Shown one piece after another: positions 32,466 to 37,430 of a DNA stretch of 64,000 nucleotides. The notes under the pieces were generated by a model. That model was not told the DNA's origin. It did not search any database and saw nothing but the letters and a program-made list of their open reading frames with translations. The first letter of the stretch is position 1. Every line of letters starts with the position of its first letter. The position numbers and the translations under genes are program-made. The DNA comes from Bdellovibrionales bacterium (lineage in GTDB: Bacteria; Bdellovibrionota; Bdellovibrionia; Bdellovibrionales; UBA1609): the NCBI GenBank assembly GCA_027317865.1, contig DAHVQG010000001.1, positions 192,001 through 256,000 on the forward strand. Reading direction: 5' to 3'.

Positions 32466-33206
32466 ATGAGAAGAATCGTAACCTCCTTATTTTTGTGGTT
32501 GGGCGCCGTTTTCTTGCTGAATTCTTTAACTTCAACTGCATTTGCTCGCGGCCAATACGCGGGCCGAAGGGGCATAACGTCGTCCAATAGAATTTGGCTG
32601 GATGGCGGGTTAGACTTCGGAGTTTGGATGAAAAACCCGGGCGTGGTTCATACGCTCGAAAATATCCCGGGTCTTGTGCATCACCATCGAGTGCGACTCA
32701 TCGAGGGGTGGAAAATGGGTATGGAGCTGGCGAAGCTACACCCCAATCTTGAGGCGATGTATGCTAAAAGATTTGGTACTGTCGAAAAAAAACTCGAGGA
32801 CGATACAGCAACGGCCTACGATCATTTATTACCGAAAAATGAAGTTGCCAAAGGGCTTGAGAAAAATCATGTGCAGGTGAATGAAAATTATGTCGGCTAT
32901 TTGCCTCGCACCACTTACCTTTTAAAGGACCCGTACATTTATGACGGCGTTTTGACGTTCACGGTTTCGAGCGTTTGCGTGAAAGGTTCGCAATTTGTGC
33001 CGACTAACCCTTATCTCGCGCCAAACGTTCTCGGCATCCCACCATGCCAGGGCGGCAAAGTTTACTCAGTATATAAAATTGCGCACGTTCATTACGACCC
33101 GTATTGCGTTGATGCTTACGGTTATCGAACTTATTGTACATCACCGGATGAACTAAAAAAGCCAATCTGGATCGATACTATTTATACAGGCGCCGAATCC
33201 GACTGA
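32466..33206 (+). CDS. secreted hypothetical protein
   Basis: Signal peptide ending AFA; 4 Cys in the C-terminal half. Confidence 0.7.
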   Translation: MRRIVTSLFLWLGAVFLLNSLTSTAFARGQYAGRRGITSSNRIWLDGGLDFGVWMKNPGVVHTLENIPGLVHHHRVRLIEGWKMGMELAKLHPNLEAMYAKRFGTVEKKLEDDTATAYDHLLPKNEVAKGLEKNHVQVNENYVGYLPRTTYLLKDPYIYDGVLTFTVSSVCVKGSQFVPTNPYLAPNVLGIPPCQGGKVYSVYKIAHVHYDPYCVDAYGYRTYCTSPDELKKPIWIDTIYTGAESD

Positions 33207-33239
33207 ATTCGACCCACCACAACTGACCGCCAACTTGCG

Positions 33240-33548
33240 CTACTTTACCATCTCTTTAAGTTCGCCGGACTGGTACATCTCCATCATGATATCGCTGCCG
33301 CCTACCAATTCTTTATTTACGTACAGTTGCGGAATGGTCGGCCAGTTACCGAATTCTTTTATCCCCTGACGAATTTCTTCGTCGTCGAGCACGTTAACGC
33401 TTTGAAATTGTGCGCCGAGTTCTTGCAGTATGGCGACCGCTCGAGCTGAAAATCCGCACTGCGGAAAGGCCGGCGTACCTTTCATAAATAATACAATGTG
33501 GTTTGCGGATAAGATCGACTCAATTTTTGATTTTGTGCTGACTTCCAT
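33240..33548 (-). CDS. grxD: monothiol glutaredoxin (Grx4)
   Basis: MKGTP..PQCGFS, WPTIPQLY, GGSDI. Confidence 0.96.
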   Translation of the reverse strand: MEVSTKSKIESILSANHIVLFMKGTPAFPQCGFSARAVAILQELGAQFQSVNVLDDEEIRQGIKEFGNWPTIPQLYVNKELVGGSDIMMEMYQSGELKEMVK

Positions 33549-33571
33549 TTTTAAATTCTCCCATGTAAAGT

Positions 33572-33590
33572 CTTGAGTTTTCGACTCAAG
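33572..33590. repeat. 7-bp hairpin near the IS end
   Basis: Minus strand CTTGAGT-CGAAA-ACTCAAG. Confidence 0.7.
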
Positions 33591-33604
33591 GTAAATTGTT
33601 AAAA

Positions 33605-33760
33605 AATAACAGATGACTATTAACCTCCCATTCGAGGTCTTCGTCTTTCGACTGAAGCCCCACCATTCCGGTTCAATAACAAGCGGCCCAATCTCCTTAA
33701 GCGGTCATAGTGACCAGATTTTAATTGCGGGCTTACCTGCTAAACTTGACCATCTGTGTG
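33605..33760 (-). ncRNA. putative IS110 bridge/seek guide RNA
   Basis: Closing stem ACAGATG/CATCTGT; two internal-loop hairpins whose loops match the target and donor sites; GAAA tetraloop. Confidence 0.78.
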
Positions 33761-33800
33761 AACTTCAATCTTTTTCTGTTCTTCATTCCTTTCAAAAAAA

Positions 33801-34829
33801 CTATGCTGCTTTTAATAGCGAGGGCTTATATACGCTCTCGCTCTTCCAAACAGCATAAACTACAGTCAGAAGTTTACGGCTAAGCGCGATTAACGCTCGC
33901 TTTTTGCCGCGTCTTCGTTCAATTCGATTAAAAAATTCTTGCAGCGGCCGCGCCGACGCTGTCTTCATTCGCACCACAGCATGGGCGCATTGTATGAGTG
34001 CTCGCCGCATCTCTTTGCGGCCGGCCCTGGTTACTGAGCCCATTCGACATTCGTCGCCACTTTGGTAAATCGTTGGCGTCAATGCACCGTAATTTGCAAC
34101 GGCTTTGCTATTTTCAAAACGATCCGCGTCAGCAATGGCACCAAAAAGTATTCGTGACGTCAGCTTGCCAATTCCTGGGATGGTCTCTATCCGCTCAATC
34201 ACCACGTCTTCAATCGTCATGATTTCGTTGGCAATTGATTTTTCGCTCTCAACCAGACATTCAATTGCGTGCATAAAGCCGGCAACAATGGCTTCAGTTG
34301 AAGACGATAATTTCATTTCGCAAAGTTGTACCTGCCAATCGTTGGCTTTAAAAAATGCCAACGGCAATTTTTGACCTTCTTGGCGCAAAAATCCACGAAG
34401 CGAGTTCATAAGCGATACACGCTTTCGAAGTAACGTCTCTCGCGCATTTGTAAGTTCGCGTAAAGTTCTCGTTTTACCTTCAGCCATGTGAACTTTGCGC
34501 GGCAACATATCGGCACGCGCGAGCTCTGCCAGTTTCTTGGCGTCAACTTGATCCGTCTTTTTACCACCGCTTTCGGCAATCCATTTCACTTCGTTAGGGT
34601 GAACGATATGAATGTCTTCACCAAGCTTTTTGAAATAATCGGCAATCCACTTCATTTGATTCCCAGCCTCGAATACAAAAAGCTTCGATTCGATGCCAAA
34701 AATGGCGATTAGGTCGCGAATGCCCTTCTTCGTCGGACTAACTGAACCTTTAAATAAAACTTTTTTCTTGTCGTTAAGCGCGTGAACGACAAAATCCTTG
34801 CCTGAGATATCCATTCCTACGTAAATCAT
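33801..34829 (-). CDS. IS110-family DEDD recombinase/transposase
   Basis: YVGMD, FEAG, KTDQVDA (DEDD RuvC-like); TIPGIG, ALTP..YQSG (Tnp Ser), ALSRKL; ATG 34829. Confidence 0.96.
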   Translation of the reverse strand: MIYVGMDISGKDFVVHALNDKKKVLFKGSVSPTKKGIRDLIAIFGIESKLFVFEAGNQMKWIADYFKKLGEDIHIVHPNEVKWIAESGGKKTDQVDAKKLAELARADMLPRKVHMAEGKTRTLRELTNARETLLRKRVSLMNSLRGFLRQEGQKLPLAFFKANDWQVQLCEMKLSSSTEAIVAGFMHAIECLVESEKSIANEIMTIEDVVIERIETIPGIGKLTSRILFGAIADADRFENSKAVANYGALTPTIYQSGDECRMGSVTRAGRKEMRRALIQCAHAVVRMKTASARPLQEFFNRIERRRGKKRALIALSRKLLTVVYAVWKSESVYKPSLLKAA

Positions 34830-35032
34830 TTTTGACCCCTTTGGTTTGTTGTTGGTAAACAACCAAGAGTCGAAAACGCGACTTAACGTCAACTTTAGAC
34901 TCACGGGGTCTTTTCTTTTTTCAGAGCTGGCCGATCGAAAATCGGCAGCAAAAAGACTTTGCGTCACTTTGCACCACCTTTCTTCGTCTCATAGCTCATG
35001 GAATCTCCTTTAGAATCGTTAATTCGATTTAT

Positions 35033-35263
35033 TTATTTTTTCAACAGGGTTTTAATTTGTAGCGCATGAACTTCGCCGGATTTGAATTCTGAAGAAAATA
35101 AATCCATTATCATCTTGTGCTGTTCGATTCGCGTTTTGTTTAGAAATGAACGCGATGAAACACGCACGTCAAAATGATCATTCGTCCCGGTTGTGTCGAT
35201 CACGGCCACGTCGCAATCGGCCAATGCGGTTTTGATTCGTTTTTCAATTTGTTCAGCCGTCAT
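35033..35263 (-). CDS. BolA/IbaG-family protein
   Basis: DHFDV.VSS..F..KTRIEQHKMI..VHALQIKT; usual partner of grxD. Confidence 0.93.
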   Translation of the reverse strand: MTAEQIEKRIKTALADCDVAVIDTTGTNDHFDVRVSSRSFLNKTRIEQHKMIMDLFSSEFKSGEVHALQIKTLLKK

Positions 35264-35331
35264 GACTGACCCATATAGCATGCGGGTGAGGTCTATACAG
35301 TTTTGACAAATTGTGTTATGTTGATAAATCC

Positions 35332-35664
35332 ATGCACGAACCGTTAACTGATCCCCAAATTTTGTACTTTTCACCCGCTGACGAAACGCACGTCAGGCGA
35401 GAAAAGGCGCGCGCGCGTGAACTGCGGCAGTCGCAGTGGTGGCGTAACCAAATCGGCCGGGGAGTTTGCCACTACTGTGGAAATAAGTTCGAAAAGGCGC
35501 AATTGACGATGGATCACGTCGTGCCGATTGTTCGCGGCGGCCGTTCGACAAAAGCAAATGTCGTGGTGGCTTGCAAAGAATGTAATTCGCATAAAAAATA
35601 TTGGACTCCAGTGGAACTGGAGCTCATGTCGCGGAACTCCGTCTTGGAGACGGAGAAAAATTAA
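35332..35664 (+). CDS. stand-alone HNH endonuclease
   Basis: CHYC..LTMDHVVP..RGG..N.V.ACKECN..K. Confidence 0.92.
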   Translation: MHEPLTDPQILYFSPADETHVRREKARARELRQSQWWRNQIGRGVCHYCGNKFEKAQLTMDHVVPIVRGGRSTKANVVVACKECNSHKKYWTPVELELMSRNSVLETEKN

Positions 35665-35720
35665 TTGCGTTTTCAGCCACCATAGTCGTACCGTAATGAT
35701 CACAGTCTCAAGGAACAGCA

Positions 35721-37430
35721 ATGACAACAAAGCTAACTCAACATAGTACGGCGGAGTATTTCGCAAAAAATCTTCAACAGGTGGGTTTTTCGTCACCGGT
35801 CAAGGCGGTTTTAACGACGCTGAAAGAAGCCGTCGATAATTCGCTTGATGCTTGCGAAGACGCGGCTATCTTGCCCGAGCTTGAAGTAATTATTCGCAAA
35901 ATCGGTCAAGGCTCGGCTCGGAATACCGAGCTTGTTGAAGTCATTGTTGATGATAACGGTCCCGGCATTGATGCGGACGATCTGCCTAGCGTATTCGGCG
36001 AATATTTGTCGTCTTCAAAATTCGGCCGAGGGCGTTGTTCGCGCGGTCAGCAAGGTATTGGGATTTCAGCCGCTACAACCTGGGCCCAGCTCACTAATGC
36101 CGCAGGCGTTCGCGTGATCAGCAAAACAAAAAACATGCGAAAGGCGATAAAAGAGCAAATCGACGTCGATATTAAAGCCAACAAAGGGCTTGTGAAAAAT
36201 AAAGAGACCATTGATTGGGATCGTCCGCATGGGACACGTGTAGAGTTTCGAATCGATGGTCGCGTACAACTTAACGGCGATGGCGGGCTTTTGACTTATC
36301 TCGAAGGCACAACCCTTGTGAACCCGCATATGACGTTAAAATATAAACTTCTTGATAATGATCCTGTTGAAGTGATTCGTGTGAGTAATGCGGTGCCTGA
36401 AGTTCCGCCGCCCACGCTCCCGCATCCGCACACGATGAAACTCGGTGAGTTTATGACTCACGCCCACCTTTACGGTAAAGTGACGCTCGATAATTTTTTA
36501 CGCAAGGGCTTTTCGCGAGTTGCCGATGAAGCGATCAAGGGTTTCGTCAAAAACGGTTTGCCGAAATCATTTTTAAGTAAACCTGTAACGGGTTTGTCAG
36601 AAGCCGATTATAAAACCGCGTTTCAGGCTATTCAGGCAAGCGAGTTGCAGAATCCGTCGACTCGATCGGTAATGATTGTCGGTGAAGAAGCGCTGTCTAA
36701 GAGTATTCAACGTTTGGGCGAAATTGATTTCTTTTCAGTGGTGACCCGCAAACCGCGAATTTGTGACTACAAGCCCGTCGCAGTCGAAGTGGCGATTGCG
36801 CGATTTGTAAAGAAAGTAAATTTGGGGGACGAAACCGATCCTATTCAGCTTTTGCGATTTGCCAATCGTGTGCCTTTGCAGTTCGACAAAGCCGCCTGCG
36901 CCATAACCCAAGCAGTTGAATCGGTGAATTGGCGCGCTTACGGTCTTCAACAGTCAAAGAGTAATTTGCCTTTGGGGCCATACGTTTTTGCGATCAGCGT
37001 TGTCTCACCCTTTATAAAATTCAAAAACGCTTCAAAAGAAACCATCGACGCAAGCGATGAGTTGGTTGAAGAAATTCGCCGCGCGCTCATGCAGGCGGGG
37101 CAAAAATTATCGCGTCACATTAAACGCGAGGTGCGCGCCGCCGACCTGGAACGCAAGCTTCAGCACATTGAAAAATTCGGTCCCATTTTGGTGGAGGCAC
37201 TCGGTAAAATCGTGAACGCACCCAAAGCGAGAATCAAGCGGGCCGAAGAGGGCCTTGCGAAGCTCTTGGGACGCGACGGACGTGAAGCCGAAAAAGAATT
37301 GGCCGAAGCCGAAACCCAATTAGAAAAAGTGAAAGCCAAGCAAGAAGCAGTCGTCAGAGAAGGGGCCAGCGGATCTACTGACGAGACCAAAGAACCACTT
37401 AAAGCGAATCAATCCGAAACGAAAGAGTGA
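35721..37430 (+). CDS. top6B: DNA topoisomerase VI subunit B
   Basis: GHKL motifs EAVDNSLDA, DDNGPG, SRGQQGIG; RFANRVPL transducer. Confidence 0.95.
   Translation: MTTKLTQHSTAEYFAKNLQQVGFSSPVKAVLTTLKEAVDNSLDACEDAAILPELEVIIRKIGQGSARNTELVEVIVDDNGPGIDADDLPSVFGEYLSSSKFGRGRCSRGQQGIGISAATTWAQLTNAAGVRVISKTKNMRKAIKEQIDVDIKANKGLVKNKETIDWDRPHGTRVEFRIDGRVQLNGDGGLLTYLEGTTLVNPHMTLKYKLLDNDPVEVIRVSNAVPEVPPPTLPHPHTMKLGEFMTHAHLYGKVTLDNFLRKGFSRVADEAIKGFVKNGLPKSFLSKPVTGLSEADYKTAFQAIQASELQNPSTRSVMIVGEEALSKSIQRLGEIDFFSVVTRKPRICDYKPVAVEVAIARFVKKVNLGDETDPIQLLRFANRVPLQFDKAACAITQAVESVNWRAYGLQQSKSNLPLGPYVFAISVVSPFIKFKNASKETIDASDELVEEIRRALMQAGQKLSRHIKREVRAADLERKLQHIEKFGPILVEALGKIVNAPKARIKRAEEGLAKLLGRDGREAEKELAEAETQLEKVKAKQEAVVREGASGSTDETKEPLKANQSETKE

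Follow-up and report, generated by a model that had tools for sequence, protein, structure and literature searches.

The window analysed here, i.e., 64,000 nucleotides of a Bdellovibrionales bacterium (assembly GCA_027317865.1, contig DAHVQG010000001.1, positions 192,001 to 256,000), carries an insertion sequence (IS) at the Shine-Dalgarno (SD) sequence that lies between bolA and grxD. Window coordinates are used throughout, and the coding strand of bolA, the IS and grxD is the minus strand, on which bolA is followed by about 1.45 kb of foreign DNA and then by grxD, the IS being co-oriented with both genes. bolA (35033..35374; PF01722 at 2.1e-13) and grxD, which encodes a monothiol glutaredoxin (33240..33548; PF00462 at 7e-22), are both intact. 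With the GGAG of its right end included, the IS measures 1447 bp (33558..35004) and is bounded by two copies of this tetranucleotide. The copy at the left junction (35005..35008) is the GGAG of the original grxD SD; it follows the bolA stop codon by 24 nt and stands 5 nt ahead of the terminal ATG of the IS. The copy at the right end of the IS (33558..33561) is the rebuilt grxD SD, 9 nt ahead of the grxD ATG. In between, a DEDD transposase of 342 amino acids (aa) is encoded (33801..34829, stop codon included) behind an AAAGGGG SD of its own, with both a PF01548 and a PF02371 domain. These Pfam domains confirmed the names bolA, grxD and transposase given in an original prediction made from the letters of the window.

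On the coding strand, the bolA-side flank ends in ...CTAAAGGAG and the IS starts with ATTCCATG; at the right junction, the IS ends in ...TTTACATGGGAG and the grxD-side flank starts with AATTTAAAAATG. The pentanucleotide TCTCC, which had been predicted on both sides of the IS, is indeed found at 33557-33561 and 35004-35008 of the plus strand. In another copy of the IS, from a sister sample of the same study (run X4), GGAG is followed by T at the right junction; the fifth repeated base (A) is hence fortuitous at the bolA-grxD site, and no more than GGAG is truly shared. The right end CATGGGAG puts GGAG back at its original 9-nt distance from the grxD ATG, and a TGGGAGA is retained 8 nt upstream of this ATG, its TGG coming from the IS, as had been proposed. 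A grxD homolog was found in 41 of the 41 genomes searched, the genome of the window itself (G000) included, and bolA lies directly upstream of grxD in 24 of 29 loci of relatives, usually across a short spacer that holds the SD. The nearest relative with both genes (G006, grxD 82% identical in aa) has the uninterrupted sequence ...AGAAGGAGATCTAAAAA-ATG, in which AAGGAGA occurs once, 8 nt ahead of the start codon. This is exactly what the window flanks give after removal of the IS, in line with the earlier claim that excision restores an AAGGAG SD. The empty bolA-grxD allele of the same strain was not found in runs X4-X7, the assembled contigs of which break at the IS ends.

Family placement and junctions of related elements

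Judged from its sequence, the IS is an IS110-family element with an IS1111-like layout. The transposase domains PF01548 (DEDD_Tnp_IS110) and PF02371 (Transposase_20) were matched at 3.3e-20 and 3.1e-21, respectively, the model NF033542 "IS110 family RNA-guided transposase" reached 223.2 bits against a cut-off of 140, and the solved transposases matched were those of IS621 (8wt6, E 1e-16) and ISCro4 (E 2.3e-15). In the 342-aa numbering, D7, E54, D93, D96 and S257-G258 do not vary among 23 aligned sequences, and the second D pair and the SG motif also find their counterparts in an alignment with IS621. The family traits, i.e., a short core common to the ends and the target, no terminal inverted repeats and no true target duplication, are illustrated by the GGAG present at both junctions in the window and in 13 other two-ended loci, reduced to GAG in a further one (L062), and by the filled/empty site pairs described below. 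Both non-coding ends are long: the right one (239 nt), located 3' of the transposase gene, holds the predicted guide RNA, and the left one spans 175 nt. The inverted repeat is limited to CCATG/CATGG (5 bp) in the clade of the window and extends over about 11-12 bp ((C/T)ATGAAAAAGC) in a clade at about 52% aa identity. In a plasmid collection, the 25 records listed were all at most 30.6% identical and labelled "IS110 family transposase" only, and all 3303 matching records stayed below 60%.

Searching genome and metagenome contigs, as well as relatives, with the transposase yielded 24 further loci (46-76% aa identity), in which the homologs measure 1345-1493 bp between the same end motifs. Three full copies and a fragment are present in a single genome, and comparing them fixes the IS ends independently. 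GGAG precedes 21 of 22 left ends, mostly as AAGGAG or AAAGGAG with A/T-rich DNA upstream, the last one being TGAG (L062). At the right ends, a start codon located 4-9 nt past GGAG opens an open reading frame (ORF) on the transposase strand in 14 of 15 cases, three of these ORFs being cut off after only 30-47 codons where a short contig ends. The transposase and the downstream ORF share the same strand in all 14 ORF-adjacent insertions. As a consequence of the recombination geometry, GGAG is kept at its old spacing in all 15 right junctions. Under the crude SD test applied, the background in G000 is 13% of GGAGA, 17% of GGAGG, 38% of AAGGAGA and 45% of AAGGAGG sites passing. The original prediction that other copies and homologs would sit at SDs, co-oriented with the gene, is therefore borne out at 21/22 left and 14/15 right junctions.

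The TGAG left flank of L062 goes together with a right junction that is nonetheless GGAG, suggesting that the stretch which donor and target must share is no more than GAG or AG. The fragment in the three-copy genome (L055, the same place as L087) consists of a solo left end and the first ~150 nt of the transposase gene, preceded by AAAGGAG. Another locus (L035) is a decayed copy in G014, with an internal TGA and unrecognisable ends. The genomes behind L048, L049, L050, L053 and L057 contained no new copies.

Predicted guide RNA and further insertions of the same element

An alignment of 13 sequences (A1), together with folding, delimits a predicted bridge/seekRNA at 33609..33757 of the minus strand, made of an outer stem around two stem/internal-loop modules. 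The 19 predicted pairs are formed in 99.2% of the alignment cells, with compensatory changes in six of them, and sliding one side by a single column lowered pairing to at most 52.5%. The covariation score was 0.265 vs 0.119 in shuffles and was reached in 0 of 500; folded by itself, the RNA of the window reaches -52.6 kcal/mol (z -3.21). In A1, the outer stem of one clade is shifted by one column relative to that of the other (ACAGATG/CATCTGT in the window, a counterpart of 12 bp in the ~52% clade), so that it was judged by eye and excluded from the pair counts.

In the target loop, the 5' strand CAATTAAAATCT (33716..33727, minus strand) is the complement of AG+ATTTTAATTG, i.e., of the top-strand sequence AG followed by ATTTTAA(TTG), situated right of the insertion point. 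The 3' strand GCTTAAGGAGAT (33691..33702, minus strand) reads in the SD sense, AAGGAG and then AT, these two last bases being also the first bases of the IS left end. Both strands of a guide encoding an ideal target of SD plus A/T-rich spacer, as claimed in the original prediction, could thus be located. In the donor loop, the 5' strand GGAATGG (33663..33669, minus strand) contains GGAAT, the complement of the ATTCC that starts the left end, and the 3' strand GAATGGGA (33626..33633, minus strand) has the same sense as the right end ATGGGAG. The donor loop covaries with the ends of the IS: AATGGGA, in the right-end sense, is replaced by ATAGGAG in both the loop and the IS end of L059 and L049, and the 5' strand is AGAAT where the left end is ATTCT (L042), vs GGAAT with ATTCC. 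Regarding loop order, the top-strand match (strand 1a) lies 5' of the bottom-strand match (strand 1b). Several guides of the ~52% clade start their target-loop 5' strand with CAT; an extension of the target to the ATG was considered on this basis and rejected, as the real targets are offset by 1-3 nt and these bases may be structural.

A further conserved hairpin (33572..33590, minus strand) lies 10 nt ahead of the right end, and its stem is kept despite differing sequences in L034, L058 and L060. As TTTTT follows it in the ~52% clade, this hairpin resembles an intrinsic terminator immediately ahead of the rebuilt SD, which would speak against free read-through into the host gene. It could also be the 3' end of the IS transcript or part of a promoter at the circle junction.

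The guides agree in part with the targets at which the elements are found. In the clade of the window (65-74% aa identity), A follows GGAG (T in the X4 copy) and the loop strand ends in TCT; in the ~52% clade, G follows GGAG and the loop strand ends in CCT. Over 16 guide/target pairs, position 1 agrees in 15, and positions 2-7 agree in 49 of 96 cells. This last value was never reached in 20000 shuffles across all pairs (30.7 +/- 4.2), and was reached in 10 of 20000 when shuffling was restricted to within clades (37.5 +/- 3.4).

Further insertions of the same IS were found in run X4, where the copy differs from that of the window by four base changes, all within the transposase gene. An X4 contig aligns over 33558-35011 and then enters other DNA. 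Two junctions of the IS to other DNA are present in the X4 contigs, and both sites are uninterrupted in G000, which both flanks match at 30/30 loosely compared letters. The empty site at C22 50863-50866 reads ...CTGAATAAAAGGAG then ATTTTTATG, with an ATG 6 nt after GGAG that opens a 228-codon ORF. The empty site at C11 336369-336372 reads ...CACCAAAAGGAG then TTTTTATG, with an ATG 5 nt after GGAG and an ORF of 141 codons with a signal-peptide-like start. In both filled/empty pairs, the insertion lies directly after GGAG and the site is an SD, as expected from the original prediction for empty sites. The IS thus moves in this community and inserts right after GGAG.

The target implied by the guide is AA-GGAG-ATTTTAA, with nine guided positions outside GGAG, and the three sites of this IS depart from it by one (bolA-grxD), one (C22) and two (C11) mismatches. 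Such scores are reached by only 41 of the 11912 GGAG sites of G000 (5 with one mismatch and 36 with two), of which 4/5 and 11/36, respectively, are SD-like. By simple arithmetic, the probability that two random GGAG sites both fall in the class of at most two mismatches is about 1e-5, and about 1e-4 for two random SD-like sites. A third left flank, from the wastewater run X5, ends in AAAAGGAG and is absent from G000. Another X4 contig starts within the IS right end and departs from the window five bases after GGAG (AATTT, then unlike); it is probably a fourth insertion site.

From the anatomy of the element, the junctions throughout the family, the conserved RNA fold, the guide-target fit and the two filled/empty pairs, we consider it likely that this is an RNA-guided IS110/IS1111-like element that targets an SD with its spacer and rebuilds the SD that it interrupts. 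In the proposed mechanism, a DEDD/serine recombinase would be guided by an RNA from the region downstream of the transposase gene, the target loop of which would pair with both strands of (A)AGGAG and of a short A/T-rich stretch, i.e., the SD and the start of its spacer. The donor loop would pair with the joined IS ends (...CATGGGAG|ATTCC...), and recombination would occur within the GGAG common to donor and target. The left junction would then bring the host SD to 5 nt ahead of the ATG that begins with base six of the IS. At the right junction, CATGG would come from the IS end, before the shared AG, so that the host gene would regain GGAG at the old distance from its start. By analogy with IS621 and ISEc11, we infer the production and the pairing of this RNA, the positions of the strand cuts and the use of either rebuilt start site by ribosomes.

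Several observations weigh against this mechanism. The agreement between guide and target is only partial, most pairs sharing 3-6 of 7 positions. Beyond GGAG, the short left-hand guide extends by only AA in the clade of the window and by nothing in the ~52% clade; hence, much of the apparent AAGGAG specificity could stem from what SDs look like. As 25 of the 36 two-mismatch sites of G000 are not SD-like, targeting alone does not explain the SD bias, part of which may reflect the survival of harmless insertions. The donor loop 5' strand pairs with ATTCC and not with the shared core AG, unlike in IS621, and no Rfam family was found in 33000-35700 at E up to 1. A start codon is not convincingly present near one of the right junctions (L053). 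Besides, the IS is a single full copy in G000, and among 401 genomes sampled from the phylum it was found only there, together with the decayed copy of G014.

Possible capture of a start signal and other explanations

The left end holds a feature that the original prediction did not mention. An ATG at base six of the IS, 5 nt after the host GGAG, was found in 21 of 21 left ends. In the window, it opens a leader ORF of 11 codons (34964..34999, minus strand; MSYETKKGGAK, then stop), the TGA of which overlaps a GTG (GTGA). From this GTG at 34967, a frame of 46 codons (34830..34967, minus strand) is open and continuous with the transposase, giving a long form of 388 aa; this extension has no Pfam match. 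Across the left ends, the leader ORFs span 7-16 codons, and a leader stop overlapping the start codon (GTGA/TTGA) of a frame open over 22 to 61 codons into the transposase occurs in the window, L034 and L042. Extended N-termini were counted among the best 120 of 2121 protein hits: 29 of these 120 have an extension of at least 20 aa, and 17 of the 29 begin with M[S/R]Y, i.e., at the terminal ATG, and run into the transposase for a total of 389-416 aa. Among the 25 hits with at least 70% identity, 23 carry an open extension of at least 43 aa despite in-frame indels. In the long forms of the window subclade (P0002-P0056, 385-416 aa), the 5' end is a fused open frame with the conserved patches LFAAD, SASS, KDP and FDSWLF.

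In a circular form, the joined ends would set the GGGAG of the IS itself ahead of the terminal ATG. Taken together, the ATG at the sixth base in all left ends, the extended long forms and the GGGAG of the joined circle suggest that the borrowing of a start signal would be part of the design of the element. A scan for sigma-70-like promoters over 33200-35450, on both strands, returned no site, vs a mean of 3.1 in shuffles. A TTTACA-N17-TATGAG seen by eye at the joined ends fails the scan rule for the second hexamer and was not retained. By a crude ORF test, 13 of 21 left flanks have a same-strand ORF that terminates no more than 130 nt upstream. Host read-through would be a reasonable source of IS transcripts.

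With the RNA guidance kept, SD targeting could then serve the capture of a host translation start and not safety, a variant of the RNA-guided mechanism that we hold to be a real possibility without favouring it. As no SD of the IS precedes the terminal ATG, only an outside SD, that of the host or the right-end GGGAG of a circle, could start translation there; the constant position of this ATG, the proteins that begin at it, the extension kept in the closest hits and the overlap of leader stop and start codon all point in the same direction. A precedent exists in the "host expression dependent" (hed) ORF of IS900. However, the ATG belongs to the subterminal inverted repeat CCATG/CATGG and may be kept for that alone. 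Moreover, all elements have an ordinary SD (AAAGGGG) before the 342-aa start, the GTG of the window has its own SD-like AAGGTGG upstream, and in most clades the leader has just 7-10 codons and is unlinked to the transposase frame. Gene callers also favour long ORFs, and the extension was without a Pfam match. In a stronger form, which we regard as tentative, the leader and the long transposase form would be translated only via an outside SD and the right end would repay the host with a new one, an SD for an SD; under this exchange, it is conceivable, if somewhat doubtful, that the guide RNA would be locked on GGAG throughout the clade, with only its spacer part varying. From the original claim that the IS targets ribosome-binding sites (RBSs) as safe sites and rebuilds the SD, the SD pattern and the rebuilt SD stand; the safe site is only one option, start capture being at least as well supported.

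The bias could also be owed to survivorship only, the guide picking any GGAG followed by a few A/T bases and harmless insertions being those that persist. The shortness of the left guide, the 25 two-mismatch sites of G000 that are not SD-like and the fact that assemblies show only fixed insertions favour this view. It appears unlikely, since the terminal ATG at a fixed distance (5 nt) and the right end that supplies GG are conserved over 46-100% aa identity, which argues for adaptation. Both extra junctions of the sister sample, presumably recent, also lie in SDs, and the co-orientation of 14/14 ORF-adjacent insertions would not be required by the avoidance of harm alone. Even if all targets were AAGGAGG (45% SD-like), 14/15 would have a p of about 1e-4, a rough value as the rate of one genome is applied to others. 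Finally, the five identical bases on both sides of the IS could be read as a target-site duplication from a staggered cut, with the position in an SD due to chance, or the protein alone could recognise GGAG. Such a reading is very improbable and already contradicted by the data: all homologs carry GGAG at their right end irrespective of the target, the repeat is only GGAG in the X4 copy and GAG in L062, the family recombines at a shared core without duplication, and the spacer bases covary with the RNA loop.

Comparison with known systems and neighbouring genes

IS900 is classed with the IS110 elements of the 5' non-coding region (5'-NCR) type. Targeting of SDs in the IS110 family has been known for about 30 years from IS900 and IS901, in the opposite orientation to the gene. 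These two elements of Mycobacterium avium insert upstream of genes, between the SD and the start codon (PMC2942039, citing Doran 1997 and Inglis 2003). Over 58 copies of IS900, an element of 1451 bp, the target motif was given as CATGNNNNNNTCTCCTT, the reverse complement of AAGGAGA-N6-CATG, and its hed ORF, which has neither an RBS nor a start codon of its own, reportedly relies on those of the host (2021 genome study, PMC8141618). The target of the IS described here is similar, i.e., AAGGAG, a short spacer and an ATG. In contrast, with the motif as written in the orientation of IS900, the IS900 transposase runs antisense to the gene that is targeted, its borrowing ORF being on the opposite strand, whereas the transposase of the window is co-oriented, with the leader or the transposase itself as the putative borrowing ORF and with a guide RNA located 3' of the gene. 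A bridge-RNA reading of the IS900 target was not found in print.

The IS1111-type elements with a seekRNA (ISEc11, ISPa11 and ISKpn4) have a non-coding region downstream of tnp, a transposase of 330-350 aa and subterminal inverted repeats of 7-17 bp, and the top-strand match of the seekRNA lies 5' of the bottom-strand match, the two overlapping in the target (Siddiquee et al., 2024, PMC11187229). The IS of the window resembles them in its guide 3' of tnp, the length of its transposase (342 aa) and its order of loop strands, and differs from them in its long 5' non-coding end (175 nt) and its inverted repeat of only 5 bp. The elements of this seekRNA group reportedly target attC sites, REP-like sequences and transposon ends, not SDs. 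In IS621, each of the two bridge-RNA loops, target and donor, reads both strands of the DNA about a common core (Durrant et al., 2024, PMC11208160; Hiraizumi et al., 2024, PMC11208158), and the targets are REP-like, from the title of a reference in PMC11208160. The window element shares with IS621 a homologous recombinase (8wt6, E 1e-16) in which DEDD and SG are kept, as well as a two-loop RNA. The loop bases AT beside AAGGAG, equal to the left end, also recall the handshake guides of IS621 (PMC11208160, PMC11208158). Unlike IS621, the RNA of the window lies 3' and not 5' of the gene and its guide order is reversed; furthermore, the core of IS621 is CT, whereas the shared stretch is here up to GGAG and the donor 5' strand skips the core.

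In the main text of Durrant et al. (2024, PMC11208160), the word "ribosome" occurs 0 times, as do "Shine", "RBS" and "IS900" in that of Siddiquee et al. (2024, PMC11187229). No paper tying a guide RNA to SD targeting was found, and the supplementary target tables of these two studies and of a preprint (10.64898/2026.10.21.760802) could hold SD-like logos. What is new here, as read from the DNA, is an apparently IS1111-like RNA-guided element with a guide fixed on GGAG, co-oriented with its target gene and swapping RBSs. It joins two themes that were separate, namely IS110 elements located between RBS and start codon and the choice of targets by guide RNAs (2024), with a guide that is directly legible and spells out the SD and its spacer. 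An insertion in a translation signal need not silence the gene, as the IS carries a replacement and may take the original signal for itself. This is also a warning for annotation, an IS between two genes of an operon being not necessarily a knock-out. For the engineering of bridge recombinases, natural guides are offered in which the shared core has 4 nt, the order of the loops is reversed and the 5' strand of the donor loop skips the core. If the exchange of SDs in both directions is true, RBSs would represent thousands of addressable, transcribed landing pads per genome.

Elsewhere in G000, a weak match of 71 nt, 78% identical to the start of the transposase gene, lies at about 5315-5386 of contig C42 (L002) and is probably the start of another, unrelated IS110-family gene. 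On the other side of bolA, an ORF for an HNH endonuclease (35311-35664, plus strand) is divergent from bolA, with which it overlaps at the bolA 5' end. Next comes a gene (35721-37430, plus strand) that resembles the B subunit of topoisomerase VI (Topo-VIb_trans, 4.4e-45), a protein more typical of archaea.

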